Source of the DNA: an uncultured Alphaproteobacteria bacterium
GTDB lineage: Bacteria; Pseudomonadota; Alphaproteobacteria; Rhizobiales; Xanthobacteraceae
Direction of reading: 5' to 3'
Length of the DNA stretch: 64,000 nt
Assembly: GCA_963742975.1 (NCBI GenBank)
Contig: CAVUNZ010000025.1
Coordinates: 20,230 to 84,229, forward strand
Part shown: in pieces, positions 28,035-50,683 of the stretch
Position numbering within the stretch: the stretch's first letter is position 1
Layout: each line of letters begins with the position of its first letter
Translations under genes and position numbers: made by a program
The notes under the pieces: generated by a model
The model's database searches: none
Told to the model about the DNA's origin: nothing
The model's input: the letters and a program-made list of their open reading frames with translations, nothing else

Positions 28035-29651
28035 ATGGCAAGCGGCTCGTCACCGCACTTTTCTTCTTCGCGCAATCTGTCGCGGATGCTGCGGCGCGCG
28101 CTGCAGGCCCATGAGGCCGGCGATGGCGCCAAGGCGAGCCGGCTCTATGCCGAAATACTGCAATACGAACCGGACAATTTTGACGCGCTGCATGGCCTCG
28201 GCAAGCTGCACTGCGACTGCGGCCGTTTTGATACCGCGCTCGCTCTCATTCAGCGGGCGCTGACGATCGATCCGCGCCGCGCCGACGGATTTTCAAGTCT
28301 CGGCCTCACTTTCTATTATCTGCGCCGCCTCAACGACGCGCTGACAAGTTTTAACGAGGGCCTGCGTCTTGACCCGGATAATGCCGAACTGTTGAACCAG
28401 CGCGGCGTGGCGCTGCTCGAGCTTGGCCGTTCCCACGAGGCGCTCGCAAGTTTCGAGCAGGCGCTGGCCGCCGAGCCCAGGTCTCTCGATGCGCTCGGCA
28501 ATTACGGCAATGCGCTGCTGAAACTCAATCGTCCGTCCGATGCGATTGCCGCTTACGATCGGGCGCTGGCGATTGCCCCGCATAATGCCGGGCTTCTTAC
28601 CAATCGCGCCATCGCGCTGCGCAAGCTCGATCGGCCGCACGAAGCGCTGATGAGCGTCACGCGCGCGCTCGCAAACAAGCCGGATTTTGCCCAGGCGCGG
28701 TTCGTCGACAGCCTGGTGCGATTGACCCTGGGCGATTTTCGCGCCGGATGGCGCGCCTATGAATCGCGCTGGCAGGGCAGAAATCTTGCCGCGCAACGCC
28801 GCGATTTTACAGCGCCGTTATGGCTGGGTGGAAGCTCGCTCGAGGGCAAAACCATTCTGCTCCATGCCGAGCAGGGTTTTGGCGACACTCTCCAATTCGT
28901 GCGCTACGCGCCGCTTGTGGCGGGGCATGGCGCCAAGGTCGTTCTTGAAGTGCAGCGCGAACTGGTTCGCCTGTTGTCGGGCCTCGACGGCATCGACGCC
29001 GTGATCGGCCGCGGCGAGACCTTGCCGTCTTTCGACGCGCATTGTCCGCTGCTGAGCCTGCCGCTCGCCTTCGGCACCGAACCGGCAACGGTTCCGGCGC
29101 CCGTGCCGTACGTCGCGGCGGTCGGCGACGATATTCGGCTTTGGCGTGAACTCCTTCCGCAAAGGCCGCGGCCGCGCGTCGGCGTGGTGTGGTCCGGCGA
29201 TCCTAGTCATGACAACGACATCAACCGGTCGATGCGCCTTAAGGCGATAGCGCCGGTATTCGACGTGCCGGACGTCGATTTCGTCAGTCTGCAATACAAG
29301 ATTCGCGACGAGGACGTCGCAGTGCTGCGGGATTTCCCGAACCTGTTTCGGCTCGAGCGCAGCTTCCGCGATTTTTCAGACACCGCGGCCGTTGTTGCAA
29401 GCTTGGATGCGGTAATCTCGGTCGATAGCGCGGTGGCGCATCTCGCCGGCGCGATGGGCAAGGAGCTGTTCGTGCTACTGCCGCTCGGCGCCGATTTCCG
29501 CTGGCTGCGCGAGCGCGCCGACAGCCCGTGGTATCCGACGGCGCGATTGCTGCGGCAAACGCAATTCGGCGATTGGGGCAGCGTGATTGAATCGCTCGCA
29601 GCGGAGCTGCGCGCGCGGTTTAGTCCGGCGGCCCGCAAGTTGTCGGCGTGA
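28035..29651 (+). CDS. TPR + GT9-like glycosyltransferase, paralogue 3
   Basis: N-terminal ..PDNFDALHGLGKL and TPRs, then EQGFGDTLQFVRYAPL, VPAPVPYV and VDSAVAHLAGAMGKELFVLLP..PWYPTARLLRQ. The start could instead be ATG 28086. Confidence 0.8.
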   Translation: MASGSSPHFSSSRNLSRMLRRALQAHEAGDGAKASRLYAEILQYEPDNFDALHGLGKLHCDCGRFDTALALIQRALTIDPRRADGFSSLGLTFYYLRRLNDALTSFNEGLRLDPDNAELLNQRGVALLELGRSHEALASFEQALAAEPRSLDALGNYGNALLKLNRPSDAIAAYDRALAIAPHNAGLLTNRAIALRKLDRPHEALMSVTRALANKPDFAQARFVDSLVRLTLGDFRAGWRAYESRWQGRNLAAQRRDFTAPLWLGGSSLEGKTILLHAEQGFGDTLQFVRYAPLVAGHGAKVVLEVQRELVRLLSGLDGIDAVIGRGETLPSFDAHCPLLSLPLAFGTEPATVPAPVPYVAAVGDDIRLWRELLPQRPRPRVGVVWSGDPSHDNDINRSMRLKAIAPVFDVPDVDFVSLQYKIRDEDVAVLRDFPNLFRLERSFRDFSDTAAVVASLDAVISVDSAVAHLAGAMGKELFVLLPLGADFRWLRERADSPWYPTARLLRQTQFGDWGSVIESLAAELRARFSPAARKLSA

Positions 29652-33720: not shown

Positions 33721-34245
33721 ATGGCGACCAAAGAAGCTCAATCTGAAACCGAAGTCGACGACGACGACGACGACGACGACAAGGCACCAGCCGAAAAGCG
33801 CAAGCTTCCGCTCAAGCTGATCGCCATGGCGGTTGGCGGGCTCGTCGTTCTCGGCGGCGTCGGCTGGGGCACCTACCACTTCCTGTTCGCCGGCAGGAGC
33901 GACATGGCGGCGGCGGCCCCGGCGCAGATCAAGCCGCCGGCCTTCCTCGACATGCCGGAAGTCCTGGTCAATCTGTCGACCGCCGGCGGCAACGAGCGCA
34001 CCCAATATCTGAAGGTGAAGGTGGTCCTCGAATTGCCGGACCAGGAAATGTCGGCGCAGATCCAGCCGGTCATGCCGCGGCTGATGGATACGTTTCAGAC
34101 CTATCTGCGCGAATTGCGTCCCACCGATCTTGACGGCTCCGCCGGGCTCTACCGGCTCAAGGAGGAATTGACGCGTCGCGTCAACGCCGCCATCGCGCCG
34201 AGCCACATCAACGCCGTTCTGTTCAAGGAAATCGTCGTTCAGTGA
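33721..34245 (+). CDS. fliL: flagellar basal body-associated protein FliL
   Basis: Acidic N-terminus, a single TM segment, then ..FLDMPEVLVNLS..YLKVKVVLEL.. Confidence 0.85.
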   Translation: MATKEAQSETEVDDDDDDDDKAPAEKRKLPLKLIAMAVGGLVVLGGVGWGTYHFLFAGRSDMAAAAPAQIKPPAFLDMPEVLVNLSTAGGNERTQYLKVKVVLELPDQEMSAQIQPVMPRLMDTFQTYLRELRPTDLDGSAGLYRLKEELTRRVNAAIAPSHINAVLFKEIVVQ

Positions 34246-34286
34246 CGGACAGAGTTTGCGAATTCAAGTCTTGAGAATTTACGCCA

Positions 34287-35504
34287 ATGGCTGAGAAGGA
34301 CCAGATCGACCACGATGCGCTCGCCGCCGAGTGGGGCGTGGCGCTTGAGGCCGAACAGAACCCCGCGGACGCAAACGAGGGCAGGGCGGAGACGGCGACC
34401 GCTACCACCGCGGATGAAGTAGCCTCGCAATGGGGCGCGGCGATGTCCGCCGAAGACAGCCACTTCATGCAGGCTAGTAAAGGCGGCGCCGAACGTGTTC
34501 TGACACAAGAAGAAATCAACTCGCTGCTCGGTTTCAGCCTGACCGATATTTCGCTCAACGATAATTCCGGCATCCGCGCGATCATCAACTCGGCGATGGT
34601 CTCTTACGAGCGCCTGCCGATGCTGGAAATCGTGTTCGACCGGCTGGTCCGGTTGATGACGACCAGCCTGCGCAATTTCACGTCCGACAACGTCGAAGTC
34701 TCGCTCGACCGCATCACCTCGGTGCGGTTCGGCGATTATCTCAATTCGATCCCGCTGCCGGCGATCCTCGCGGTGTTCAAGGCGGAGGAGTGGGAGAATT
34801 TCGGCCTTGCCACCGTCAATTCGAGCCTGATCTATTCGATCATCGATGTGCTGCTCGGCGGCCGCCGAGGCCAGACCACGATCCGCATCGAGGGCCGGCC
34901 GTACACCACGATCGAGACCAATCTCGTCAAGCGCATGATCGAGGTCGTGCTGGCTGATGCCGAGCTCGCGTTCCGGCCGTTGTCGCCGGTCAAATTCAAC
35001 ATCGACCGGCTCGAGACCAATCCGCGCTTTGCCGCCATTTCGCGGCCGGCCAATGCCGCGATCCTGGTGCGCTTGCGTATCGACATGGAAGATCGCGGCG
35101 GCACGATCGAGCTCTTGCTGCCTTACGCCACCATCGAACCGATCCGCGACGTGCTGTTGCAGATGTTCATGGGCGAGAAGTTCGGCCGCGATGCGACCTG
35201 GGAAGGCCATCTGGCGACCGAACTGGCGCAGGCCGAAATCTCAGTTGACGCAGTGCTTTACGAGGCGAAATTGCCGCTCCACCAGATTATGAAGCTCGAT
35301 GTCGGCGACACGCTGATGCTCGAATTGAAATCGGACGCGCCGGTGATCGTGCGCTGCGGCGATGTCACCTTGACCGAAGGACGCATGGGGCGGGTCGGCG
35401 ACCGCGTCGCCGTGCGCGTCAACCGACCCCTGCGCAAGCCCAACATGACCTTCGCCATGTTCGAGGCATCAGGCGGGTCGAGCAGCCGGATGGAGACACC
35501 ATGA
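34287..35504 (+). CDS. fliM: flagellar motor switch protein FliM
   Basis: LTQEEINSLLGF N-terminal CheY-P binding-type motif and a SpoA-like C-terminus; 405 aa. Confidence 0.9.
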   Translation: MAEKDQIDHDALAAEWGVALEAEQNPADANEGRAETATATTADEVASQWGAAMSAEDSHFMQASKGGAERVLTQEEINSLLGFSLTDISLNDNSGIRAIINSAMVSYERLPMLEIVFDRLVRLMTTSLRNFTSDNVEVSLDRITSVRFGDYLNSIPLPAILAVFKAEEWENFGLATVNSSLIYSIIDVLLGGRRGQTTIRIEGRPYTTIETNLVKRMIEVVLADAELAFRPLSPVKFNIDRLETNPRFAAISRPANAAILVRLRIDMEDRGGTIELLLPYATIEPIRDVLLQMFMGEKFGRDATWEGHLATELAQAEISVDAVLYEAKLPLHQIMKLDVGDTLMLELKSDAPVIVRCGDVTLTEGRMGRVGDRVAVRVNRPLRKPNMTFAMFEASGGSSSRMETP

Positions 35505-36022
35505 ACCAAAGTATCGGAATGATCATCGATTGCGTGGTCGCGATCCTGCTCGTGATGACAATCGGTTATTGCATGATGCTCAACCGCAGGCTCAAGCTGC
35601 TCAAGGCCGACGAGCAGTCATTGCGCGCGACGATTTCCGAGCTTGTGACGGCGACCGAAATCGCCGAGCGCGCCATCGGCGGATTGAAGATCACCGTCCA
35701 TGAATGCGACATGGGATTGGGCGAGCGGCTGCGCAAAGCCGAGCGCCTCGCCGGCGATATCGACCGCGCCATGGTGTCCGGCAAGGACCTGATCAGCCGG
35801 CTGTCGCAAATCGTCAGCGCAGGCCGGCGCGCCGATGAGCTGGCGCTTGCCGAGACGCGCGACGCCGCGAAATTCACGGCCAAGAGTGAAACCAAGACCG
35901 AGAGCAAGACAGCCGCCAGCGAAGTCAGGACCGGTCTGAAGATCGATCCGAGAGCCGTGGCCGCTGCGGCGGAAGCCTTTGCCGAGCGGTTGCGCATGAA
36001 GGTCCATGGTCTCGCGGCATGA
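35501..36022 (+). CDS. small membrane-anchored coiled-coil protein (DUF6468-like), flagellar operon member
   Basis: ATGA overlaps with the fliM stop and with the next gene. N-terminal TM segment IIDCVVAILLVMTIGYCMML, then a helical region. Confidence 0.5.
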   Translation: MNQSIGMIIDCVVAILLVMTIGYCMMLNRRLKLLKADEQSLRATISELVTATEIAERAIGGLKITVHECDMGLGERLRKAERLAGDIDRAMVSGKDLISRLSQIVSAGRRADELALAETRDAAKFTAKSETKTESKTAASEVRTGLKIDPRAVAAAAEAFAERLRMKVHGLAA

Positions 36023-36930
36023 TGCGGTTCGTTCGCGATCTGCGGCTTATTCCAATTGCGCTGATCGCGAGTGCCTGTCTGCTCGCGCTCAAGACGGCTG
36101 ACCTCGTTCTCGACAGCGGCTATTTCTTTGCCGCCGACAATATCAATTTCGATGGTGGCGACGCCCAGTTGGTCCGCAGGGGCTCGGGCACGATAGGACC
36201 GCCTGACTCCTGGGCCAAGCAGATGTTCAATTTCCCCGACGGGAAGGGCACTGCTGTGCCGCAGGGCCTGCCGCAGATCATGCCGCGGCGTGCCAACAAC
36301 GCGGTCGTCATCGACAGAGACAATCCGGATATTACCGGCTCCGTTACCGCGCCGCCGGCGAACGGCGCTAAGCCCGACGCCGCGGGTGCCAAGGATGCCA
36401 AGGCAGAGCCCAGCGATCCGCCTCCCGCGCCGCCAGGCCGCATCATTCCGACCGAAGGACCGGTCCCCACCGGCGCCGAGCGCGCCATTCTCGAACGCCT
36501 GCAGCAGCGCCGCGAGGAGATCGACACCCGCGCCCGCGAGCTCGATCTGCGCGAAAGCCTTATTCAAAACGCCGAGAAGCGGATGGATTCGCGGATCGAC
36601 GAACTCAAAGGCGTCGAGTCCCGCATCAAAACCGAAACCGAGCAGAAGAGCGAGACGCAGGATGCGCGCCTCAAGAGCCTCATCACGATCTATGAGAACA
36701 TGAAGCCGCGCGACGCCGCAAAAATCTTCAATGGTCTCGAAGACAGCGTCCTCATCGAAGTCGCCGCCAAGATCAATCCGCGCACCATGGCCGAAATTCT
36801 GGCGCTGATGCAGGCCGATGTCGCCCAGCGCCTGACCGTGGAGCTTGCGAGCAAAGCGCAGCAGGCGCCGCAACCCGGCGGCGGCCCGGGCGATCTGCCG
36901 AAGATCGACGGCCAGCCGACGGCGAAATAG
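36019..36930 (+). CDS. motE: MotE-like / MgtE-N (FlbB) domain periplasmic flagellar protein
   Basis: Signal anchor, a Pro-rich linker, a coiled coil, then ..YENMKPRDAAKIFNGLEDSVLIEVAAKINPRTMAEILALM. Confidence 0.6.
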   Translation: MMRFVRDLRLIPIALIASACLLALKTADLVLDSGYFFAADNINFDGGDAQLVRRGSGTIGPPDSWAKQMFNFPDGKGTAVPQGLPQIMPRRANNAVVIDRDNPDITGSVTAPPANGAKPDAAGAKDAKAEPSDPPPAPPGRIIPTEGPVPTGAERAILERLQQRREEIDTRARELDLRESLIQNAEKRMDSRIDELKGVESRIKTETEQKSETQDARLKSLITIYENMKPRDAAKIFNGLEDSVLIEVAAKINPRTMAEILALMQADVAQRLTVELASKAQQAPQPGGGPGDLPKIDGQPTAK

Positions 36931-36951: not shown

Positions 36952-37896
36952 TTAAATCCAATCTTTCCACTTGAACCAGAGCAGCGGCAACAATGCCGTG
37001 ATCAAGATCATCGCCAGGGCGTAGGGATAGCCCCACGACCAGTCGTATTCGGGCATGTATTTGAAATTCATGCCGTAGATGCCGACCACCAGAACCGGTG
37101 GGATGCCGACCACCGACGCGATAGTCAGCACCTTCATCACGTCGTTCTGGTCGATATTGATGATGCCGGTCGCCGCGTCCTGCAAGAGCTGCACCCGGCT
37201 GACCAGACCTTCGGCGAATTGCACCAGCGAAGCGATGTCGGACGACACCGCTTGGAGATCGGCGCAAAGATTATGCGCGATCCAGTCGCGGCCGCGCTCC
37301 TGGGAGAATTTGGCCATGCGGTCGAGACAGACCAACGTGTAATGGATGCGCGCCATCCGCTCGCTGGTGCGGCCGGTGCGGATCATGAGCTGGCGCAGCA
37401 TCGCGGTCTCGTGCGAAAGCTTGGCGCGCTTGCCAGGCCGGAAGATGACATGCGAGGCGTCATCGAGATCGACGCCGCTGCCTTCCAGGAGATCGGCGGC
37501 GTGATCGACCAGTTCTTCGAGAATGCGGACGAAAGCGAGCGCCGGCTCGAAGGTTTCATGGCCGCTGATCTCCTTGACCACGCTGTCGAAGAACGGCGAC
37601 GGCACATAGCGCACGGTCAACAGAACGTGTTTGGCGAGCACGAAACCCGCCGGTGTCGGGATCCAAACCTCGTTGGCTTGGGAGAGGATCAGCGGCGCCG
37701 TCATATAGAGCGTGCCGTCCTCGACTTGCAGTCGGCTTGAAGCCTCGATCTCGCCGAGATCTTCGCGCGTCGGCACGCGCAGCCCGAAGGTCTTTGCCAC
37801 CCGCGCGCGTTCTTCCTCGCTCGGATCGACGAGGTCGATCCAGGTGCATTGCGACATCGCGCTCTCGGCGTGATGGACTGGGAAAGTGCGGAGCAT
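36952..37896 (-). CDS. corA: CorA family magnesium/cobalt transporter
   Basis: YGMNF (GMN motif) followed by two C-terminal TM segments; 314 aa. Confidence 0.9.
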   Translation of the reverse strand: MLRTFPVHHAESAMSQCTWIDLVDPSEEERARVAKTFGLRVPTREDLGEIEASSRLQVEDGTLYMTAPLILSQANEVWIPTPAGFVLAKHVLLTVRYVPSPFFDSVVKEISGHETFEPALAFVRILEELVDHAADLLEGSGVDLDDASHVIFRPGKRAKLSHETAMLRQLMIRTGRTSERMARIHYTLVCLDRMAKFSQERGRDWIAHNLCADLQAVSSDIASLVQFAEGLVSRVQLLQDAATGIINIDQNDVMKVLTIASVVGIPPVLVVGIYGMNFKYMPEYDWSWGYPYALAMILITALLPLLWFKWKDWI

Positions 37897-38133: not shown

Positions 38134-38148
38134 TTAAGGCGCCATTAA
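38134..38148 (+). promoter_or_regulatory. perfect CtrA box TTAA-N7-TTAA upstream of the 1354-aa gene
   Basis: TTAAGGCGCCATTAA. A third CCATTAAG follows at 38166-38173. The box is about 120 nt upstream of ATG 38268. Confidence 0.5.
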
Positions 38149-38267
38149 GCACGACTGCTAAGCCGCCATTAAGTACGCCCGCCTATCGTGGACAGCGGGC
38201 TGACGTCGGGGCGGCGCTATGGCCGCGTGGCGTCGTTGTGTTGTGTCGAGTGAGTTCCGAGTCCTGT

Positions 38268-41200
38268 ATGGCGTGCGGTCGCACCATCACGAATGTTGGC
38301 CTTCGCCTGTCATCGTATTTTTGGCGTTGCATCAGGTCGGCTGCCGCTTTCGCGCTTTTGACCGCTATCGCGGTGGCGCCTGCGGCAGCGGCGCCGCCGA
38401 AGGCGCCGGTGAAGGCCACGCTCGCCGTTACAGTGAGCGACGGCTATGCGCGCCTCGTCTTCACCGCCGGCGAATATATCGAGGCCACGACCAAAGTCGC
38501 CGGCCATGTGCTGATCATCACCTTTAAGCAGCCGATCGATGTGGCCGTGGATCGCGTGCCCGAGCTTGCTTCCGATTATGTCGGCGCGGCGCGGCGCGAC
38601 CCCGACGGTACGGCGATCCGCATGGCGCTGTCGCAAGAAGTTACCGTGAACCCGATGGACGCCGGCGAAAAGCTGTTCGTCGATCTTTTGCCGTCGTCGT
38701 GGACCGGACCGCCGCCGGGGCTGCCGCAGGACGTCGTTACCGAGCTCGCCCGCCGCGCCCGTGAAGCCGAGCGGCAATTGCAGCGCCAGCGCGAGCTGAC
38801 GCAGGCGAAATATGTGGCGCCGATCCGCGTTCATGTCGCGAGCCTGCCGACTTTCACCCGATACGTCTTCGACGTGACCGGCGAGACCGCGGTGGCCGCC
38901 GATCGCTCCAAGGATCGCCTGGTCCTGAATTTCGACGCGCCCTTGACCTTCGATCTCGCCGACGCTCAAGCGGCGCTGCCGAACGGCGTGCAGGCGATCG
39001 ACGGCGAAATCGATAAGGACTCCTCGCTGGTGCGCTTTGTGTTCAGTGCGAGTCTCGACCTGCGCACGTTCCGCGACGAGAACGGCTATGTGGTCGATGT
39101 CGTAAAGTCAGACGATGCAGCGGCGCGTGGTGCGGCGCCGGCGCCGAAATCGGCAAATGGCGGCCCGCCAAGTCCGGAAGCCGCGGCCGCGGCCGTCAAT
39201 GCCGCAGCGGCCGGCCAGAAGCCCGCGCAGCCGGTGGAGCCACCGTCGCCACGTCGCGCCGGCCAGTCGAGCGCTTTACCTAATCCGGCGGCATTTGCAT
39301 TGGCGCAAGGCATCGTCATGCCGTCGGCGCAACCTGTGCCGACGCCCGCGCCGCCTATGCCCGCAGCTCCTCCCGTTGCGCAATCGGCGCCGATAGTGCC
39401 GCCTGCGCCGCGACAACCGGCATCACCTGTCGCGCAATCAGCGTCCCCTGTGCTGCCGTCGGCGGGGCAGGTCGCCGCCGCGCCAATGCCGCAACCGGCC
39501 GCACAAGCTGCGCCCGTTCCGGCTCAGCAAGCTGCCGCACCGCAAGTTGCAGCACCGGCCGCAGCAGAAGCTGCATCGCAGCCCGCGTCTGCACCGCCGC
39601 AAACAACCGCGCCGCCGCCTCTCGCGCCATCGACGCCGCCACCTGTCGCGACAGCGCCACCTGCGCCGCCATCCGGCGCATCGGCCGCTGCCCTTGCCGC
39701 TGCCGACGCGGTCGCCAATAAACCGGCGGAGGCTCCGGCGCCGCAAGCTGCGACTGCGCCGCGCAACATTGCGCCCGGTGCCATCGGCGTCGAGCTTGGG
39801 CGCGACGGCGCCAACCTGAAGGTGTCGTTTCCGTTCAAGACCGCCGTTCCGGTCGCGGTCTTCCATCGCGCCGACATGCTCTGGATCGTATTCGATTCCA
39901 AGGCCAATATGGATTTGACCGCGCTTGACAACGAGCCGACGCGGACAATTCGCAGCTACACCTTCACCCACGCCGGTGACGCCGATGTCGTGCGGTTGAA
40001 GCTTGACCGTCCGCACCTCTCCAGCGCCAGCGCCGACGGCGCGGTATGGACCCTGGAGATCGGCGATTCCGTTCTCGAGCCGCCGCACGCCCTCGAAGTC
40101 ACCCGCAACATCATCGTGCCCAACAGGTCAAGTGCCTCGATCGGCTTCGAGGAGCCGCAACATGTGCACCGGCTCACCGATCCGGAGCTCGGCGACAAGC
40201 TTCTCGTCGTCACCGGCTTTGCGCCCGAGCGCGGCTTCATCAATACGCAGGAATTCATCGAATTCCGCGCGCTTGCCTCCACGCAAGGCGTTGTCATCGA
40301 GCCGCTTGCCGACGACATCGAGGTCAATCTGTCGCTCGACAAGATCGTGGTCGAACGTCCGTCCGGTCTGACACTGTCGCCGGGGCTGCAGACCCTGTTG
40401 CACGGCCGCAATGGACGGCCGTTGACATTCGATTCCCAGATCTGGGGTTCCGATCGCGAAGGGTCCTATGTCAATCGGCAAGCAAGCCTGATCAATGCCG
40501 CGGCCCAGGCGCCGGAAAGCAAACGCATGACGCCGCGGCTCAATCTGGCGCGCTTTTATCTTGCCCGCGACATGTATCCGGAGGCCAAGGGCGTGCTCGA
40601 CGTCGCGCTCACCGCCGATAAACAGGCCTCCGAGAACGCCTCAGCCATCGTGCTGCGCGCCATCGCCGAAGTAATGATGAACCGCCCCGACGACGCGCTG
40701 CACGACCTGTCCAATACCTCGGTCGGCGAACAGCACGACGCGCCGTTGTGGCGCGCGCTCGCTTTTTCGGAGCAAGGTCAATGGGCGAGGGCGCGTCAAG
40801 GATTCAAGAGCGTGGAAGCGGCGGTCGCGACTTTGCCGGTCGAATTGCAGCGCATCGCGCTGTTGGACGAGATGCGCTCGGCGATCGAGGTGGGCGATTT
40901 CGACGGCGCCGCGGCCGACCTCAACGATTTTCAGACCATCGGGGTGCCGCACGACCTGCAGCCGATGCTTGCCGTGCTGATGGGTCGGCTCGACGAGGGC
41001 ATGGGGCGTAGCGAGGACGCGCTCTCGGCCTATCGCGCGGCGGCGGATTCCTGGGACCGCCCGTCCGCGGCGCAGGGGCGGCTGCGCGAAACGCTATTGC
41101 GGTTCACGCAAGGCGACATGAAGCGCGACGAGGTGATTTCCACGCTCGAATCGCTCACCACCATCTGGCGCGGCGACGAGACCGAGATCGAGGCGCTGAA

Positions 41201-42332
41201 AGTGCTGGCTCACTGCTATACCGAGGAGGGCCGCTATCGCGACGCCTTCTACGTGATGCGCAGCGCCATGGCGTCGCACCCCAATTCGGCGATGACGCGG
41301 CAGATTCAGGACGAGGCGGCGGCGACCTTCGACTCGCTGTTCCTCGCCGGCAAGGGCGATTCCATGCCGCCGATCGACGCGCTGGCGCTGTTCTACGACT
41401 TCCGCGAATTGACGCCGGTCGGCAGCCGCGGCGACGAGATGATCCGGCGGCTCGCCGACCGTCTCGCTGCGGTCGACCTGCTCGATCAGGCGTCCGATCT
41501 TCTGCAATATCAGGTCGATCACCGCCTGCAGGGCGCCGCGCGCGCTCAGGTCGCGACGCGGCTGGCGGTGGTCTATCTTATGAACAAGAAGCCCGACCGG
41601 GCGCTGGCAGTGCTGCGCGGCACGCGCGCGGCCAATGTATCCGACGAGTTGCGCAATCAGCGCCTGCTGCTCGAGGGCCGCGCACTGTCCGACACCGGCC
41701 GGCCCGATCTCGCGCTCGAAGTGATCGCCAATCTCGACGGCCGCGAGGTGACGCGGCTGCGCGCCGATATTCTGTGGTCGGCGAAGCGCTGGGACGAATT
41801 GGCCGAGCAGATCGAGCTGATGTATGGCGATCGCTACAAGGATTTCACGCCGCTCTCCGACGTCGAGCAGCAGGACATATTGCGCGCCGAAATCGGCTAT
41901 GCGCTGTCGAGCGACGCTTTGGGTCTCGCCCGCTTCCGCGAAAAATACGCAGCTAAAATGGCGGCGACCCCGGATGCGAAAGTGTTCGAGGTCGTCTCGG
42001 CGCCGCTCGGCTCGAGCGGCGACCAGTTCGGCGTGATTGCCAAAGCGGCGACCTCGATCGACACGCTCGACGGCTTCCTGCGCGATATGAAGGCGCGCTA
42101 TCCCGAATCAAGCACGGCGGCATCCGAAGTGTCCGCGCCTGCAGTTGCGGCGCCCGCAGTTTCCGCACCCAGAACTTCGGCTCCCACGGCCACCGTGCCG
42201 GGCACCGCGCCGCCGACGAAGCCCAGGGGGAGCAGCGCGCAGAATACGAAAGTCCCGGCCGCGAAGAAAATTGCGCGCGCTCCGTTAGCGCAGCGTTTCA
42301 ACACTGCGGCGCTCGACAATCACGTCCCGTAG
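38268..42332 (+). CDS. large secreted multi-domain protein: repeated beta domains (AMIN-like?), about 220-aa Pro/Ala-rich linker, C-terminal TPR-like helical repeats
   Basis: Signal peptide ..AAFALLTAIAVAPAAAAP. One uninterrupted 1354-codon frame. Its 3' end overlaps the fliP 3' end by 13 nt. Confidence 0.7.
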   Translation: MACGRTITNVGLRLSSYFWRCIRSAAAFALLTAIAVAPAAAAPPKAPVKATLAVTVSDGYARLVFTAGEYIEATTKVAGHVLIITFKQPIDVAVDRVPELASDYVGAARRDPDGTAIRMALSQEVTVNPMDAGEKLFVDLLPSSWTGPPPGLPQDVVTELARRAREAERQLQRQRELTQAKYVAPIRVHVASLPTFTRYVFDVTGETAVAADRSKDRLVLNFDAPLTFDLADAQAALPNGVQAIDGEIDKDSSLVRFVFSASLDLRTFRDENGYVVDVVKSDDAAARGAAPAPKSANGGPPSPEAAAAAVNAAAAGQKPAQPVEPPSPRRAGQSSALPNPAAFALAQGIVMPSAQPVPTPAPPMPAAPPVAQSAPIVPPAPRQPASPVAQSASPVLPSAGQVAAAPMPQPAAQAAPVPAQQAAAPQVAAPAAAEAASQPASAPPQTTAPPPLAPSTPPPVATAPPAPPSGASAAALAAADAVANKPAEAPAPQAATAPRNIAPGAIGVELGRDGANLKVSFPFKTAVPVAVFHRADMLWIVFDSKANMDLTALDNEPTRTIRSYTFTHAGDADVVRLKLDRPHLSSASADGAVWTLEIGDSVLEPPHALEVTRNIIVPNRSSASIGFEEPQHVHRLTDPELGDKLLVVTGFAPERGFINTQEFIEFRALASTQGVVIEPLADDIEVNLSLDKIVVERPSGLTLSPGLQTLLHGRNGRPLTFDSQIWGSDREGSYVNRQASLINAAAQAPESKRMTPRLNLARFYLARDMYPEAKGVLDVALTADKQASENASAIVLRAIAEVMMNRPDDALHDLSNTSVGEQHDAPLWRALAFSEQGQWARARQGFKSVEAAVATLPVELQRIALLDEMRSAIEVGDFDGAAADLNDFQTIGVPHDLQPMLAVLMGRLDEGMGRSEDALSAYRAAADSWDRPSAAQGRLRETLLRFTQGDMKRDEVISTLESLTTIWRGDETEIEALKVLAHCYTEEGRYRDAFYVMRSAMASHPNSAMTRQIQDEAAATFDSLFLAGKGDSMPPIDALALFYDFRELTPVGSRGDEMIRRLADRLAAVDLLDQASDLLQYQVDHRLQGAARAQVATRLAVVYLMNKKPDRALAVLRGTRAANVSDELRNQRLLLEGRALSDTGRPDLALEVIANLDGREVTRLRADILWSAKRWDELAEQIELMYGDRYKDFTPLSDVEQQDILRAEIGYALSSDALGLARFREKYAAKMAATPDAKVFEVVSAPLGSSGDQFGVIAKAATSIDTLDGFLRDMKARYPESSTAASEVSAPAVAAPAVSAPRTSAPTATVPGTAPPTKPRGSSAQNTKVPAAKKIARAPLAQRFNTAALDNHVP

Positions 42333-43090
42333 CTTTGGATCAGCGAGCCGGCGACCAAGGTCCAGCCGTCCACCAGGACGAAAAAGATCAGCTTGAACGG
42401 CAGTGACACCACGACCGGCGGCAACATCATCATGCCCATCGACATCAGGACCGAGGCGACGACCAGGTCGATGATGAGGAACGGCAGGAACAGCAGGAAG
42501 CCGATCTCGAAGGCGCGCCGCAATTCGGAAATCATGAAGGCCGGGATGAGAATGCGCATGGACATATCTTCCGGCTTGTCCGGCGTCTTTTCGCCGGACA
42601 TGTCCATGAACAATTGCAGATCCTTCTCGCGGACGTTCTTCTCCATGAAGCCGCGCAGCGGCACGCTGGCGCGATCGAAGGCCTCGTTGACGGTGATCTG
42701 GTTGTTGACGAGCGGCTGGATGCCGACGTCATAGACCTTGGTCAGGACCGGTCCCATCACGAAGGCGGTCAGAAACAAAGCAAGCGAGATGACGACCGAG
42801 TTCGGCGGCGCCGTCGCCGTGCCGAGCGCGGTGCGCAGCAGCGACAGCACGACGACGATCCGCGTGAACGACGTCATCATGATGAGGATGGACGGCGCCA
42901 GCGACAGCACTGTCAGCAGCGCGATCAGTTGAATGACGCGCTCGTTCAGTCCACCGCCGCCGGCGGTGCCCTGGCCGAAATTGATGCTGATATCCTGCGC
43001 GGCGAGCGGCGTCGCCGAGAACAAAAGAACCGCTACAGAGGCCGCTACGGTTATGAACCGAACGCGGCGGCCTCCTAACGCGAGCGTCAA
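42320..43090 (-). CDS. fliP: flagellar type III export pore protein FliP
   Basis: Signal peptide plus ..LTVLSLAPSILIMMTSFTRIVVVLSLLR..PNSV... The TTG start overlaps the fliO stop. Confidence 0.95.
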   Translation of the reverse strand: MTLALGGRRVRFITVAASVAVLLFSATPLAAQDISINFGQGTAGGGGLNERVIQLIALLTVLSLAPSILIMMTSFTRIVVVLSLLRTALGTATAPPNSVVISLALFLTAFVMGPVLTKVYDVGIQPLVNNQITVNEAFDRASVPLRGFMEKNVREKDLQLFMDMSGEKTPDKPEDMSMRILIPAFMISELRRAFEIGFLLFLPFLIIDLVVASVLMSMGMMMLPPVVVSLPFKLIFFVLVDGWTLVAGSLIQSYGT

Positions 43091-44145
43091 GTCTTGGTCG
43101 GACGGCCCAACAAACTCGCCATCTCCTGTTCGAGGCTGTCATAAAGGGCGGTCTTGTTGCCCTGGTTTGGCTTTGCCTCTGGCCGCTGCGGCCGAACCTC
43201 AGACTTAGCCTCAGGTCTGGGCTCGGTCTGACGAGGCGCGCGGGGTGGCATTGGCGACAAAGTATCGGCCGGATGAGCGGCCTCGGACGCCGGCGCCGGA
43301 CGCTGCGGCGGCGCCATCGGGCGACGCGGTTCGGGCGGAGCGTTCGGCTTGCGCAACGCGGCCTCGAGACGGCTCGCCATGTCGGCGAGGCTTTGATCGG
43401 CTTGGTTTGGATCGGCTTCCGCTGCGGCGGGAGCACCAAAGGGCGGAGCAGGGGGCGGCGCCGGCGGTGCGACAACGACCGGCGCTGCCGGCGGCGGCTC
43501 GATCGGCTCGTCGTCCGGCATCTCGATATGCGGCTCTGCCTTGGCTTCGACGCGCGGCTCTGTCGATTGCGGCCGAGCAAATGGGGAGCGGCGCGGCGGT
43601 GGCGGGCGCGAACCGAGTTCGTCGGCGAGAGCCGCGAGCGTATCGCGTTGCGGACGTGGCGGCGGTTCGGCGACGGGCTGCGGCATCCGCGGCGGCAATT
43701 CGTCCGGCAAAGGTTCAGGGCGCGGCGGGCGCAAAGTGGCGCCGGCCGGCTCCGGCTGCAATGGCCATGAGCCGCCGTTCTCTGGAATCGGAATAGCGCG
43801 TGGCAGAGCTTCGATCCCGGCGGCGGGACGCGCTCCCGGCACATCGCGCGGCGACCCAACCGCGCGCACAATGTTGGGCTCGACGACGACGTCGGTCGGT
43901 CCGCCGATCATCAAGAGATGTTCGACATTGTCGCGCCGGACCAGAATAAGCCGCCGGCGGCCGTCGACGCTGGCATGATCGATCACCGCGAGCCGCGGCT
44001 GGCGACCGCGCGCATTGTCGCGGAAACGTCCGGCGCCGAATCGCCGCAACGCCCACGCGATCGCGCCGATCAGGCCCAGCACAATAAGGAATGCCAGAAA
44101 GAAGCGTACGGCGAGCGGCATCTCCGCTCCCAACAGACTGTCCAT
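43087..44145 (-). CDS. fliO: FliO-like export protein with about 230-aa Pro-rich C-terminal extension
   Basis: ATG 44145 follows GGGGAG. TM segment VRFFLAFLIVLGLIGAIAWAL, then RLAVIDHASVDGRRRLILVRRDNVEHLLMIGG (the FliO core), then a P/A/R-rich tail. Confidence 0.65.
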   Translation of the reverse strand: MDSLLGAEMPLAVRFFLAFLIVLGLIGAIAWALRRFGAGRFRDNARGRQPRLAVIDHASVDGRRRLILVRRDNVEHLLMIGGPTDVVVEPNIVRAVGSPRDVPGARPAAGIEALPRAIPIPENGGSWPLQPEPAGATLRPPRPEPLPDELPPRMPQPVAEPPPRPQRDTLAALADELGSRPPPPRRSPFARPQSTEPRVEAKAEPHIEMPDDEPIEPPPAAPVVVAPPAPPPAPPFGAPAAAEADPNQADQSLADMASRLEAALRKPNAPPEPRRPMAPPQRPAPASEAAHPADTLSPMPPRAPRQTEPRPEAKSEVRPQRPEAKPNQGNKTALYDSLEQEMASLLGRPTKT

Positions 44146-44333
44146 CCGCACTACTCCCCGTTTCGCCTCGGCGCTCTTGTCGGTCCCCAAAAGTTAACAG
44201 CGCCGGAAATACTTGCCGCCGTGATTACTAACAAACAATTAAAAATCATAGCCGAATTTCGTGACAAAGCCGATGGATGAAGCTTTTTCATGGTAAACGG
44301 CAGATTAATGGCAAAACCGCTTTGAAACCGCCT

Positions 44334-44349
44334 TTAACCTGCCATTAAC
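44334..44349 (+). promoter_or_regulatory. perfect CtrA box TTAA-N7-TTAAC between divergent fliOP and flgBC-fliE-fliQR-flhB
   Basis: TTAACCTGCCATTAAC, whose second half extends to TTAACCAT. It is about 76 nt upstream of the flgB ATG. Confidence 0.55.
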
Positions 44350-44424
44350 CATACGCCCGGCAAAGTCTGCCCAGTGCCAAACCGCGTTTCTCCTGCACGT
44401 CTTGGCCGATTGGGGACGCCGCCG

Positions 44425-48045: not shown

Positions 48046-50683
48046 ATGACGGCGTCCGGCAGTGCCGAATCGAAGGCTGTTGGGTCCCTGATCGAGGCTC
48101 CCGCCATCGCGGCGTCGCGGCCCTCGGTCGATCGCAGCGCCAGTAATGCCGCGCGCGGCGGCAGCATCGTGCTTGTGCTGCTGGTCGCCGTGCTGCTGGT
48201 CGCCGCCGCGATCGGAATCGTTATGATGGGCGGCAGCAATGCCGAGCCGTATATCCTGGGATTCCTGGCGGTGCTGGCGACGATCGGCGTATTCTCGCTG
48301 TTTGCGCTCGCCTGCGGCATCTTGCGGGTATCGGCGGCGGACTCCAGCCATCCGATGATCAAGTCGGTGGTGGACAACGCCTTCGACGGCATCGTCGTCA
48401 CCGGCAGCGACGGTCAGGTGGTCTATGCCAATGCCGCCTATCTCGATCTGACCAACGCTTCGGATCCCAATGACATGCGGCCTGTCGAGCGCGCCTTCAT
48501 CGGCGACGCCGAGGCCTCCGAGGCGATCTATCGGCTGTTGAAAGCAGCAAGAGATGGCAAGCGCCTGCAGGAAGAGGTCCGCGTCGCGGGCGCCAAGGGC
48601 CGGCCGGCGCGCTGGCTGCGGTTTCGCATCCGGCCGCTCGGTGCGAGCCGGCGCGAGAACGGACTCACCGTCTGGTCGCTGTCGGACGTGACACGCGAGC
48701 GCGCGCATCAGGAAAATGTGTTCCAGGAATTGCAGCACGCCATCGACTATCTTGATCACGCGCCGGCCGGGTTTTTCTCGGTCGATGACAAAGGCGACAT
48801 CGTCTATCTCAACGCCACGCTTGCCAATTGGCTCGATCAGGATCTGGCCCAGGTCGGCTCCGGCGGCTTGAAAATCGCCGATCTGGTCGCCGGCGACGGT
48901 GCCGCTTTGCTGACGACGCTGCGGTCGCCGCCGGGCGAGGTCAAGACCGAGGTGCTCGACCTCGATCTGCGCACCCGCAGCGGACGCACGCTGCCGGTGC
49001 GGGTGTTTCACAAGCTCGCTTTTGGCGCGGACGGCACGCCCGGCGCTTCGCGCACGCTCGTGCTCAACCGCGCCCGCGACGACGGCAGGGATCCGCAGCG
49101 CGCCGCCGACATCCGCTTCATGCGGTTCTTCCATCACACGCCGATGGCGATCGCGACCATCGACAAGCACGGCGGCGTGGTGCGCACCAATCCGCTGTTC
49201 GCGCGGCTGTTCCACGGCGCAAGAGTTTATGGCGCAAGAGTGAGCAACGAAGCCGGCGAAGACGACAGCGCTGACCGTTCGATCCTCGCCACCGTGGTCG
49301 AACGCGACCGTGACGCGCTCAAGGCCGCAATCACGCTCGCCGCGCAAGGCGAGAGCGATATCGCGCCCGTCGACGCGATGCTCTCAGGCAGCAGCGAGCG
49401 CTTCGGGCGCTTTTACGTCACCGCGGTCGAGGAAGAAGAACGCGACCAGGAAGCCGCCATCGTCTATGCGCTCGAGACCACGGCGCAGCGCGAGCTCGAA
49501 AGCAAGGTCACGCAGCAGCAGAAGATGGACTCGATCGGTCAGCTGGCCGGCGGCATGGCCCATGATTTCAACAATGTGCTTGGCGCCATCATGATGGCGA
49601 CCGATTTTCTGCTCAGCGCGCACAAGCCGACCGACCCGTCCTTCGCCGATATCATGCAGATCAAGCAGAACGCCAACCGGGCCGCGAGCCTGGTCCGGCA
49701 TCTGCTCGCGTTCTCGCGCAAGCAGACGCTGCGTCCGCAAGTGCTCGACATCGGCGAGGTGCTAAGCGACCTTCGGATGCTGCTGCAGCGGTTGATCGGC
49801 GAAAAGGTCACGCTCACCGTGGTGCACGGCCGCGATCTGTGGCCGGTCAAAGTCGACATTTCGCAGTTCGAACAGGTGATCGTAAATCTCGCGGTCAATG
49901 CGCGCGACGCCATGCCGAGCGGCGGGCGATTGCAAGTGCGCACCAGCAACGTGACCAAAGAAGACAGCGAGCGTTACCGCGGCAGAGGTATGCCGGCGGC
50001 GGACTATGTGCTGGTCGAAGTCGCGGATAGCGGCACTGGGATTCCGGCCAAAATCCTCGACAAGATTTTCGAACCGTTCTTCTCGACCAAAGAGGTGGGC
50101 AAGGGCACTGGTCTCGGCCTCTCGACCGTCTATGGCATCATCAAACAGACCGGCGGCTTCGTCTATGTCGACTCGGTCGAGCAGCAGGGCGCCACGTTCC
50201 GTATCTTCCTGCCGCGCCATATCGCGAGCGCGCAGGAGAGTGCGGCCGAGCGCGCCGCGGCGACGGATCTGGCAGCCGAGTTCGAGCAAGCGCGCGGCGA
50301 GCGCGGATCTGACGGGCGAGGGCACCATCCTTTTGGTCGAAGACGAGGAGGGCTTGCGCCAGCTCAATGCCAGGGGGCTCGCCTCGCGCGGCTATACGGT
50401 TCTTGAAGCCGGCAACGGCGTCGAAGCCATCGACGTGCTCGAAAAGTCCACAGGCCAGATCGATCTCGTCGTATCGGACGTGGTGATGCCGGAAATGGAC
50501 GGGCCGACGCTGCTGCGCGAATTACGCACGCGCAATCCGGATCTCAAGATCATCTTTGTGTCGGGTTATGCCGAAGATGCCTTCCAAAAGCATCTGCCGG
50601 CGGACGGTCAGTTTGCCTTCTTGGCCAAGCCGTTCACGCTCAAGCAGCTTGTCAATGCCGTAAAGGAAACGATGGCCGCGTGA
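48046..50683 (+). pseudogene. cckA: CckA-like hybrid histidine kinase (TM-PAS-HisKA-HATPase-REC) with an apparent 1-nt frame disruption before the receiver domain
   Basis: Frame 1 (48046-50406) carries the TM segments, PAS domains, H-box GGMAHDFNNVLG and ATPase G-boxes. The receiver ..DLTGEGTILLVEDEE..DLVVSDVVMPEMDG..KPF continues only in the +1 frame to 50683. The total span is 3n+1 nt. Confidence 0.7.

Follow-up and report, generated by a model that had tools for sequence, protein, structure and literature searches.

A Probable Spoke Protein of the Flagellar Motor

Feng et al. and a 2026 review on the E-ring place PflA, MotC, MotK, FlcB and CC_2058 together as spokes in contact with a ring built from FlgY, MotE or FlbB. 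We here discuss a gene that probably encodes a long-form member of this PflA/MotK/FssB class of periplasmic motor scaffolds, i.e., an exported spoke made of tetratricopeptide repeats (TPR), which would be anchored to peptidoglycan by AMIN-like domains and support the stator. The gene (38268 to 42332, forward strand) codes for 1354 amino acids. It is located in a stretch of 64,000 nucleotides from an uncultured Alphaproteobacteria bacterium of the Xanthobacteraceae (assembly GCA_963742975.1, contig CAVUNZ010000025.1, positions 20,230 to 84,229 of the forward strand), which is called the window in the following and to which all positions refer.

PflA of Campylobacter jejuni and Helicobacter pylori (788 amino acids) consists of a beta-sandwich, an AMIN domain according to Feng et al., an unstructured linker and a superhelix of 16 TPRs. 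In situ it is a stoichiometric, structural radial spoke that reaches from the FlgY E-ring to the stator ring, and it is required for stator incorporation.

In Caulobacter crescentus the fliL operon is followed by CC_2059, a FlgY homologue proposed to form the E-ring, and by CC_2058. The latter, FssB, has 958 amino acids and carries a Sec signal and TPRs; models of its N-terminal domain are AMIN-like. Deletion of fssB leaves filaments that do not rotate, like those of a motB mutant. The gene had been isolated as a suppressor in a pathway of mechanical signalling; the signalling defect is explained by the loss of stator activity. FssB has been proposed as a PflA homologue contacting the E-ring.

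MotK of the Fla2 system of Cereibacter sphaeroides (652 amino acids) is a polar protein of the periplasm with MotE and MotB2 as binding partners. A ctrA mutant lacks it, and its own mutant is Mot− (Velez-Gonzalez et al.). It is reported with a Sec signal and proline-rich segments, and its gene lies near motE or motA. Its localisation depends on MotA and MotB, and at the pole it is found stably together with the hook. Without MotK, MotE is unstable; the MotE of Sinorhizobium meliloti was originally described as a chaperone. Velez-Gonzalez et al. noted in both MotK and CC_2058 an AMIN-like domain at the N-terminus, with TPRs behind it. BLAST similarity of MotK is reported to be missing even to CC_2058, and the class as a whole is reported not to be conserved in sequence. 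MotC of S. meliloti (434 amino acids) and FlcA/FlcB of Borrelia, periplasmic partners of MotE or FlbB that act on the stator, were grouped as PflA/PflB-like by Feng et al. What is said below about a Mot− phenotype, binding to MotE and MotB, polar localisation and dependence on CtrA is taken from such relatives in the literature.

Supplementary Table 5 of Feng et al. 2025 lists, as "potential PflA (TPR)", proteins of B. japonicum USDA 6 (WP_014494015.1, 1248 amino acids), N. hamburgensis (WP_011509902.1, 1269 amino acids, next to FlgY) and R. palustris CGA009 (WP_011159427.1, 1242 amino acids), together with those of Caulobacter (958), Cereibacter (652) and S. meliloti (434). The catalogued proteins of 1242-1269 amino acids very likely belong to the family discussed here. 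Clusters at 90% identity did not tie these accessions to it; those checked held other species. The earlier note on this DNA had considered an undescribed scaffold. This can no longer be maintained: FssB is needed for rotation, MotK has been characterised, and the 2025 survey contains the long proteins of Bradyrhizobium, Nitrobacter and Rhodopseudomonas. The spoke class is thus described and the clade has already been catalogued computationally. Nor is a new category opened, because the E-ring/spoke model already predicts such a protein. To judge from sequence comparison, the novelty lies in the three copies to which the AMIN-like domain has multiplied in the long form, in the family signature motifs WRGD and FYDFRELTPxGRRGDEMIRRLADRL..VDLLDQA, in sequence bridges to proteins of Azospirillum and Sphingomonadales, and in a private promoter of the CtrA type that is nearly universal. 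We found no literature on the gene in Bradyrhizobium.

Domain Architecture

The protein is encoded in one uninterrupted open frame (38238 to 42332, forward). The start chosen is the one common to 14 aligned homologues, which begin with MAC.. or MACGRT. AlphaFold2 was run on family alignments and yielded two models, an N-terminal one (residues 45-300) and a C-terminal one (residues 505-1285). The parts of the protein, all on the forward strand, are:

38268 to 42332: gene for the 1354-residue protein with three AMIN-like domains and TPRs; ATG at 38268, stop codon at 42330-42332
38268 to 38399: signal-peptide-like N-terminus, residues 1-44, by hydropathy; hydrophobic core at residues 25-42
38409 to 38705: B1, AMIN-like beta-sandwich 1, residues 48-146 (AlphaFold2, pLDDT above 90; Foldseek)
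38727 to 38810: long connecting alpha-helix, residues 154-181 (helix 110-137 of the N-terminal AlphaFold2 model)
38817 to 39137: B2, AMIN-like beta-sandwich 2, residues 184-290 (AlphaFold2)
39132 to 39779: Pro/Ala-rich hypervariable linker, residues 289-504 (composition, alignment)
39780 to 40073: B3, AMIN-like beta-sandwich 3, residues 505-602 (AlphaFold2)
40119 to 40367: B4, a further beta-domain, residues 618-700 (AlphaFold2)
40467 to 42104: TPR-like alpha-solenoid and C-terminal helical region, residues 734-1279 (AlphaFold2, Foldseek, profiles)
41388 to 41555: family signature LFYDFRELTPxGxRGDEMIRRLADRLxxVDLLDQAxxLLQxQVDxRLxGAARAQVA, residues 1041-1096 (29 members at 28-63% identity)
42105 to 42329: Pro/Ala/Ser tail, residues 1280-1354, poorly conserved (alignment of homologues)

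In the N-terminal model (pLDDT, the per-residue confidence measure of AlphaFold2, 88) two eight-stranded beta-sandwiches, B1 and B2, are linked by a helix of 28 residues. Its best matches in the PDB by Foldseek are PilQ 3jc8 (E 3.9e-5), which carries AMIN and is part of the type IVa pilus machine, AmiC 4bin (E 8.3e-3) and the B2 domain of PilQ, 4aqz; the Foldseek probability is 1.00 for 3jc8_Qa, 4bin and 4aqz/4av2 alike. When compared by hhalign with a diverse family alignment, B1 and B2 match with a probability of 97.6% (E 2.6e-12), B2 and B3 with 97.3% (E 1.7e-11), and B1 and B3 with 95.2%, the E-values of the three pairs ranging from 2.6e-8 to 2.6e-12. By this sequence comparison B1, B2 and B3 can be regarded as paralogues; no similarity of B4 to any of them was detected by hhalign. 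PilQ and AmiC as best partners of the beta-domains also speak for a general scaffold of the cell envelope unrelated to the motor, a possibility to which we return with the genomic evidence.

The linker between B2 and B3 has 216 residues, 59% of which are Pro or Ala. Among homologues it shows 34% identity and varies in length from 140 to 267 residues.

AlphaFold2 predicts about 29 helices across residues 734-1213 (about 480 residues) and further ones up to residue 1279 or so. This helical region is the most conserved part of the protein, with 73-79% identity among close homologues (mean of the solenoid, 79%). In the protein itself Pfam detects weak TPR matches, TPR_19 alone being above the cutoff, while TPR_2 is found in 24 of 29 diverse family members. 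A profile of the diverse family retrieved EMC2, proteins of the kinesin-light-chain type and consensus TPR proteins from the PDB at E-values of 3e-9 to 2e-4. The solenoid is a genuine TPR array. Apart from the signature listed above, the 29 members (28-63% identity) share a second near-invariant motif, WRGD, at residues 967-970.

The best PDB match of the C-terminal model is 9hmf_K, PflA of C. jejuni (Foldseek E 8.7e-12 over 823 columns), in an entry that shows the scaffold of the periplasmic motor of this species. It outranks SPINDLY, APC/C, OGT and all generic TPR proteins. Chain K comprises 773 residues. As PflA and PflB have 788 and 820 amino acids, respectively, and the authors of 9hmf left out the signal peptides and began their PflA model at residue 16, the chain is assigned to PflA, of which 773 residues represent positions 16-788.

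At the N-terminus an Arg-rich n-region precedes the hydrophobic residues 25-42 (Kyte-Doolittle about 2.1), which is Sec-signal-like by hydropathy only. The residues ahead of the core (1-24, 38268-38340, MACGRTI.N.G.R) are conserved in the 14 closest homologues, whereas n-regions usually drift; this segment could be a signal anchor or an element working at the RNA level. Orthologues of Bradyrhizobium have a different n-region, which is also Arg-rich and unusually long (about 30-45 residues ahead of the core). At the opposite end, the last 25 residues or so (42255-42332) are common only to the closest homologue, P0001; most homologues end earlier. The convergent fliP frame (42320 to 43090, reverse) overlaps the 3' end of the gene by 13 nucleotides, 42320-42332, because of this C-terminal extension.

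Reading the letters alone, the earlier note had described a clean frame of 1354 codons, a signal peptide, at least four beta-domains, a Pro/Ala linker of about 220 residues, TPR-like repeats, a tail rich in Pro, Ala and Ser and the 13-nucleotide overlap with fliP. All this agrees with the findings above; the three strings it quoted for the beta-domains fall into B1, B2 and B3.

In NCBIfam the protein found no match above cutoff. Matches to SctY, MamA and PilW below it were set aside as generic TPR similarity. A chaperone of type III secretion, as the SctY match might indicate, was rejected: the putative export signal, the size of the protein and its genomic context speak against it. The names of orthologues are of little help either: nine RefSeq/GenBank entries checked are called "tetratricopeptide repeat protein", "TPR repeat protein" or "hypothetical protein", and the names in the search sources are no better.

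Genomic Context and Distribution

Flagellar genes lie on both sides of the gene, as the earlier note had stated. The order in the window is fliL, fliM, a gene for a DUF6468 protein, a gene for a MotE-like protein of 303 amino acids, corA on the opposite strand, the gene discussed here and, convergently, fliP-fliO; beyond these follow flgB, other flagellar genes, flhB and cckA. The upstream neighbours are:

33721 to 36022, forward: fliL, fliM and the DUF6468 gene, with which the ancestral operon begins (open reading frame and domain scans)
36019 to 36930, forward: gene for an E-ring protein of the FlgY/MotE/FlbB type, the probable partner (NCBIfam collar_FlbB, 1.3e-8)
36952 to 37896, reverse: corA, magnesium/cobalt transporter gene, between the motE/flgY-like gene and the gene discussed here

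The MotE-like protein combines a transmembrane helix and a coiled coil with a head of the MgtE_N type (Pfam 4.3e-5, just under cutoff), which is the layout of FlgY, MotE and FlbB. Its gene lies 1.3 kb upstream of ours, with corA in between.

Relatives are abundant. Homologues at E ≤ 1e-3 number 540, and clusters at 50% identity, with the same threshold, 4694; the top 150 clusters keep the two-part architecture with 1100-1460 amino acids down to 32% identity. The distant members that were sampled belong to Maritalea, Polycladidibacter and Roseibium. A scan with a nine-member alignment found relatives in at least 559 species-representative genomes, one genome per species. The locus counts given in the following refer to the best 80 of these at least 559 genomes and, within them, to the loci that could be evaluated. 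The 80 are of the Xanthobacteraceae/Nitrobacteraceae type, i.e., metagenome-assembled genomes of Xanthobacteraceae type, Pseudolabrys, Bradyrhizobium, Afipia, Nitrobacter and Rhodopseudomonas; the nearest are two uncultured Xanthobacteraceae-type assemblies (L005 and L006; 76-80% identity over the C-terminal part). Orthologues extracted from Nitrobacter, Rhodopseudomonas, Bradyrhizobium and Afipia have 1192-1306 amino acids and lie behind a motE-like gene. Matches of 790-970 amino acids, obtained in the search of representatives, were considered as a natural short form and rejected: they start inside the linker and have no signal peptide, hence are truncated gene calls.

In 50 of 60 evaluable loci a MotE-like gene precedes the gene on the same strand; in 31 the two are immediate neighbours. 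The ancestral order, fliL-fliM-DUF6468-motE/flgY-like followed by our gene (50/60), is intact in locus L001. A convergent fliP is found within 1 kb downstream in 22 of 64 loci. The corA gene is not at this place in L001 and L002; 12 of 60 related loci have it within 2.6 kb ahead of the gene. Because the motE-like gene directly adjoins our gene in 31 loci and the unit is intact in L001, the corA of the window looks like a secondary, lineage-specific insertion that split the ancestral operon. That the E-ring protein carries an MgtE_N head, a domain of magnesium transporters, next to corA is probably coincidence.

Distant homologues lead beyond this order. By tblastn against plasmids and chromids, relatives with 26-30% identity across the TPR region were found in Azospirillum, Indioceanicola, Erythrobacter and Sphingobium. 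The unannotated AZOLI_RS27160 of Azospirillum lipoferum (831 amino acids) has a signal peptide, one AMIN-like domain, a Pro-rich linker and TPRs, and lies immediately upstream of motA-motB. The similarity (tblastn E 3e-15; pairwise BLASTP E 1e-23) amounts to 28% identity over 477 residues of the TPR region, and the N-terminal domain matches B1 by hhalign (93%, E 3.7e-7). In Erythrobacter, fliL-fliM-DUF6468 and the gene for a small MgtE_N protein are followed, after two short open reading frames, by the gene for a homologue of 548 amino acids. Compared with these proteins from flagellar clusters of Azospirillum and Erythrobacter, the TPR region of our protein shows 25-28% identity. In three orders of Alphaproteobacteria the family is thus linked to genes of the stator and the E-ring, and a short form exists that has just one AMIN-like domain.

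This bears on the envelope scaffold mentioned above. Such a protein might serve a type IV or Tad pilus secretin, combining a PilQ-type AMIN domain with TPRs of the PilF/PilW type, or be similar to Tol-Pal/CpoB, and its flagellar location would be incidental. Besides the PilQ and AmiC matches, the weak NCBIfam match to PilW and the loss of flagellar linkage in some loci can be quoted in its favour; CtrA also controls pili in Caulobacter. Yet the synteny with fliLM-motE in 50 of 60 loci and the convergent fliP in 22 of 64 are hard to reconcile with an incidental location, the distant homologues are again found in flagellar clusters of two other orders, and no pilus genes were seen among the open reading frames scanned in the window (about 28-54 kb). 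We consider this explanation extremely unlikely.

Some neighbours deserve a remark. The DUF6468 protein (35501-36022, forward) has one N-terminal transmembrane helix and is helical thereafter; its gene overlaps the stop of fliM and the start of the motE-like gene. Its position is conserved from Xanthobacteraceae to Erythrobacter and equals that of PflI in Caulobacter; we found no literature that links DUF6468 to PflI. A second TPR protein of the cluster, distinct from the spoke candidate, is encoded at 28035-29651 (forward; 538 amino acids), adjoining flgH, as it also does in L001. It has strong canonical TPRs at residues 20-230 and a weak Glyco_transf_9 match at residues 447-477, and may be a flagellin glycosyltransferase of the FlmG type. 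The FliO-like frame (43087-44190, reverse) codes for 367 amino acids, several times the size of classical FliO, and FliO models match residues 35-98 only; related loci keep the extended length, with 373 amino acids in L001. In locus L003 (P0069, 1-6142) the homologous gene is found outside a flagellar cluster, near TIR/AAA_16 and nSTAND-TPR genes that look like defence genes; its CtrA-type box is kept.

The Promoter

Upstream of the start codon are two elements:

38134 to 38148, forward: CtrA-type box TTAAGGCGCCATTAA (TTAA-N7-TTAA), 120-134 nucleotides upstream of the ATG (motif scan)
38165 to 38172, forward: second GCCATTAA repeat, providing a third TTAA about 20 nucleotides downstream of the box (motif scan)

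The earlier note had seen a perfect CtrA box and a third CCATTAAG; the latter is found at 38166-38173. The idea has gained strength: of 72 related loci, 63 carry a perfect TTAA-N7-TTAA in the 300 bp ahead of the gene, compared with a background of 0.008 per 300 bp elsewhere in these loci. In the 64-kb window the box occurs twice, where 0.07 are expected, the other copy being that of the divergent fliO/flgB promoter; all four copies of GCCATTAA in the window are likewise in these two promoters. The third TTAA is kept in L001 and L003, too. 38134-38148 is thus a predicted binding site of CtrA. The box occurs even in loci where nothing separates the gene from the motE-like gene ahead of it; by this conservation the gene has retained its own CtrA-type promoter, and has done so in nearly all of the loci.

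The surroundings are of a similar kind. In the fliO/flgB divergent promoter (44305-44352), TTAACCTGCCATTAACCAT joins a complete CtrA-type box to a TTAACCAT half-site, with an inverted GCCATTAA 29 nucleotides upstream. The window holds six TTAACCAT half-sites (12708, 20205, 26664, 33431 on the reverse strand, 33596 and 44345), where 0.37 are expected; two of them flank the divergent flgF/fliL promoter. The window appears rich in putative promoters of the CtrA regulon, and cckA itself is located in it (48046-50406). A GC-rich hairpin of 12 pairs (38210-38237), between the box and the ATG of our gene and probably in its 5' leader, was flagged by a terminator-like scan only, which as a whole did not exceed the expectation from shuffled sequence (3 versus 1.6).

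A CtrA-type box would be compatible with cell-cycle control and, therewith, with a role in the placement of the flagellum: the protein, anchored to peptidoglycan at the pole, would mark or stabilise the building site as a polar landmark and not support the stator at all. AMIN domains are indeed associated with the localisation of periplasmic complexes in the cited literature, and the operon is shared with DUF6468 at the position of the Caulobacter positioning protein PflI. However, loss of FssB results in flagella that are assembled and paralysed, MotK needs MotA/MotB for its localisation and not the reverse, and the Azospirillum homologue adjoins motAB. A placement factor is therefore very unlikely. 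The earlier note had guessed at a scaffold or a positioning factor. Fold and synteny support the former, in the shape of a PflA-like flagellar scaffold; as to the latter, the relatives point to stator support instead, because the filaments of the fssB mutant do not rotate.

Proposed Function

The most plausible reading is that of a periplasmic spoke. A beta-sandwich N-terminal to a long TPR superhelix, with a Pro-rich linker in between, is characteristic of the class, and the models predict just this; the gene is part of a flagellar cluster, with a flgY/motE homologue a short way upstream behind corA, and the Azospirillum homologue adjoins motAB. Architecture, fold similarity, synteny, conservation of the promoter and the distant motAB-linked homologues are the contributions of the present analysis to this reading. 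As far as peptidoglycan binding, the geometry of the spoke and the tethering role of the linker are concerned, we infer what follows.

The CtrA-type promoter would turn the gene on together with early flagellar genes, and the protein would be exported via Sec. At the base of the motor the TPR solenoid together with B3 and B4 would form a radial spoke, which may dock on an E-ring of the FlgY/MotE-like protein encoded upstream and touch the periplasmic part of MotB. B1 and B2, on their Pro/Ala tether of 216 residues, would fasten the assembly to peptidoglycan. In this way stator units would be kept engaged and active; loss of the protein is accordingly expected to yield flagella that are assembled but paralysed.

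A number of points weigh against this picture. The Pfam family AMIN, PF11741, has no match in the whole protein, in the isolated domains (E ≤ 10) or in the 29 diverse members, and the "AMIN-like" PF24837 matched just 2 of these 29 (E 0.013). Membership of the beta-domains in PF11741 was rejected at every level tried; they are, in consequence, AMIN-like by fold only, and of the AMIN idea of the earlier note the structural part stands, with PilQ and AmiC as Foldseek partners, while the family assignment does not. Peptidoglycan binding is unproven even for MotK. The C-terminal model is of moderate confidence only (pLDDT 70.6; predicted TM-score, pTM, 0.40), the TM-scores by Foldseek are low (0.24), as expected of a flexible solenoid, and PflA leads the generic TPR proteins by a factor of only about 20 in E-value. 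Searches of PDB sequences with the single protein and two family profiles returned generic TPR proteins only and no PflA. A link at the level of sequence to characterised members was thus not found for PflA, and FssB and MotK are likened by description. In view of the low TM-scores and the modest margin, the PflA match of the model is taken as a likeness of architecture and not as a demonstration of homology. In some genomes (L003) the gene is apart from flagellar genes. Finally, no member of the long-form clade has been studied experimentally.

The protein could also act transiently, as an assembly factor that chaperones the MotE/FlgY ring or as an adaptor that relays mechanical signals to the enzymes of cyclic di-GMP metabolism, without ever becoming a stable spoke. 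The instability of MotE without MotK, the first description of S. meliloti MotE as a chaperone, the isolation of fssB as a suppressor in mechanical signalling and the weak NCBIfam match to the TPR chaperone SctY would fit. But MotK stays with the hook at the pole, PflA is a stoichiometric part of the structure in situ, the fssB signalling defect is explained by lost stator activity, and the size of our protein and its three anchoring domains suit a structural role better. We regard a transient factor as quite unlikely; like the envelope scaffold and the placement factor, it is less likely than a spoke.

A more daring extension of the spoke reading is tentative and rather doubtful: the long form, with its AMIN-like triplet, additional beta-domain and Pro/Ala tether of 140-270 residues, may give rise to a periplasmic structure of a kind that no motor has shown so far, for instance an additional ring within the peptidoglycan, tethered above that of the spokes. 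If so, the stator ring would be statically anchored and wider, unlike that supported by the single-AMIN spokes of Campylobacter, Cereibacter and Azospirillum.

What is gained is a functional name for a protein hitherto annotated as TPR or hypothetical protein, with relatives in Bradyrhizobium, Rhodopseudomonas, Nitrobacter and Afipia. For a class described as not conserved in sequence, sequence bridges now span Hyphomicrobiales, Rhodospirillales and Sphingomonadales. The gene keeps a CtrA-type promoter of its own even when fused to the fliLM operon. For those interested in symbiosis and motility of Bradyrhizobium, a candidate component of the motor becomes available.

Comparison with Known Systems

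FssB is similar in its operon position behind fliL-fliM, the PflI position and CC_2059, in its TPR region and in its AMIN-like N-terminus. Our protein is about 400 amino acids longer, and FssB is likened to it by operon position and published description. In contrast to Caulobacter, corA is inserted in the window between the motE-like gene and ours.

MotK, also likened by published description, has the AMIN-like N-terminus, the proline-rich segments and the TPRs in common with our protein, as well as a link to CtrA, which is one of expression in MotK and of a promoter box here. It differs by its single N-terminal AMIN-like domain and by being half the size. MotC and FlcA/FlcB, judged from their descriptions, are much smaller or built otherwise.

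The Azospirillum relatives, AZOLI_RS27160 among them, share homology in the TPR region, the B1-type N-terminal domain and the flagellar cluster. The Azospirillum form, itself uncharacterised, is short, has one AMIN-like domain and is encoded upstream of motA-motB instead of behind motE.

PflA, the best structural match in the PDB, has the same sequence of beta-sandwich, linker and TPR superhelix. Unlike our protein, to which it has no detectable sequence similarity, it works with PflB, PflC, PflD and a basal disk specific to Campylobacterota. The protein of the window, for its part, goes beyond PflA: its AMIN-like domains number three, a further beta-domain is added, and the Pro/Ala linker is far longer.

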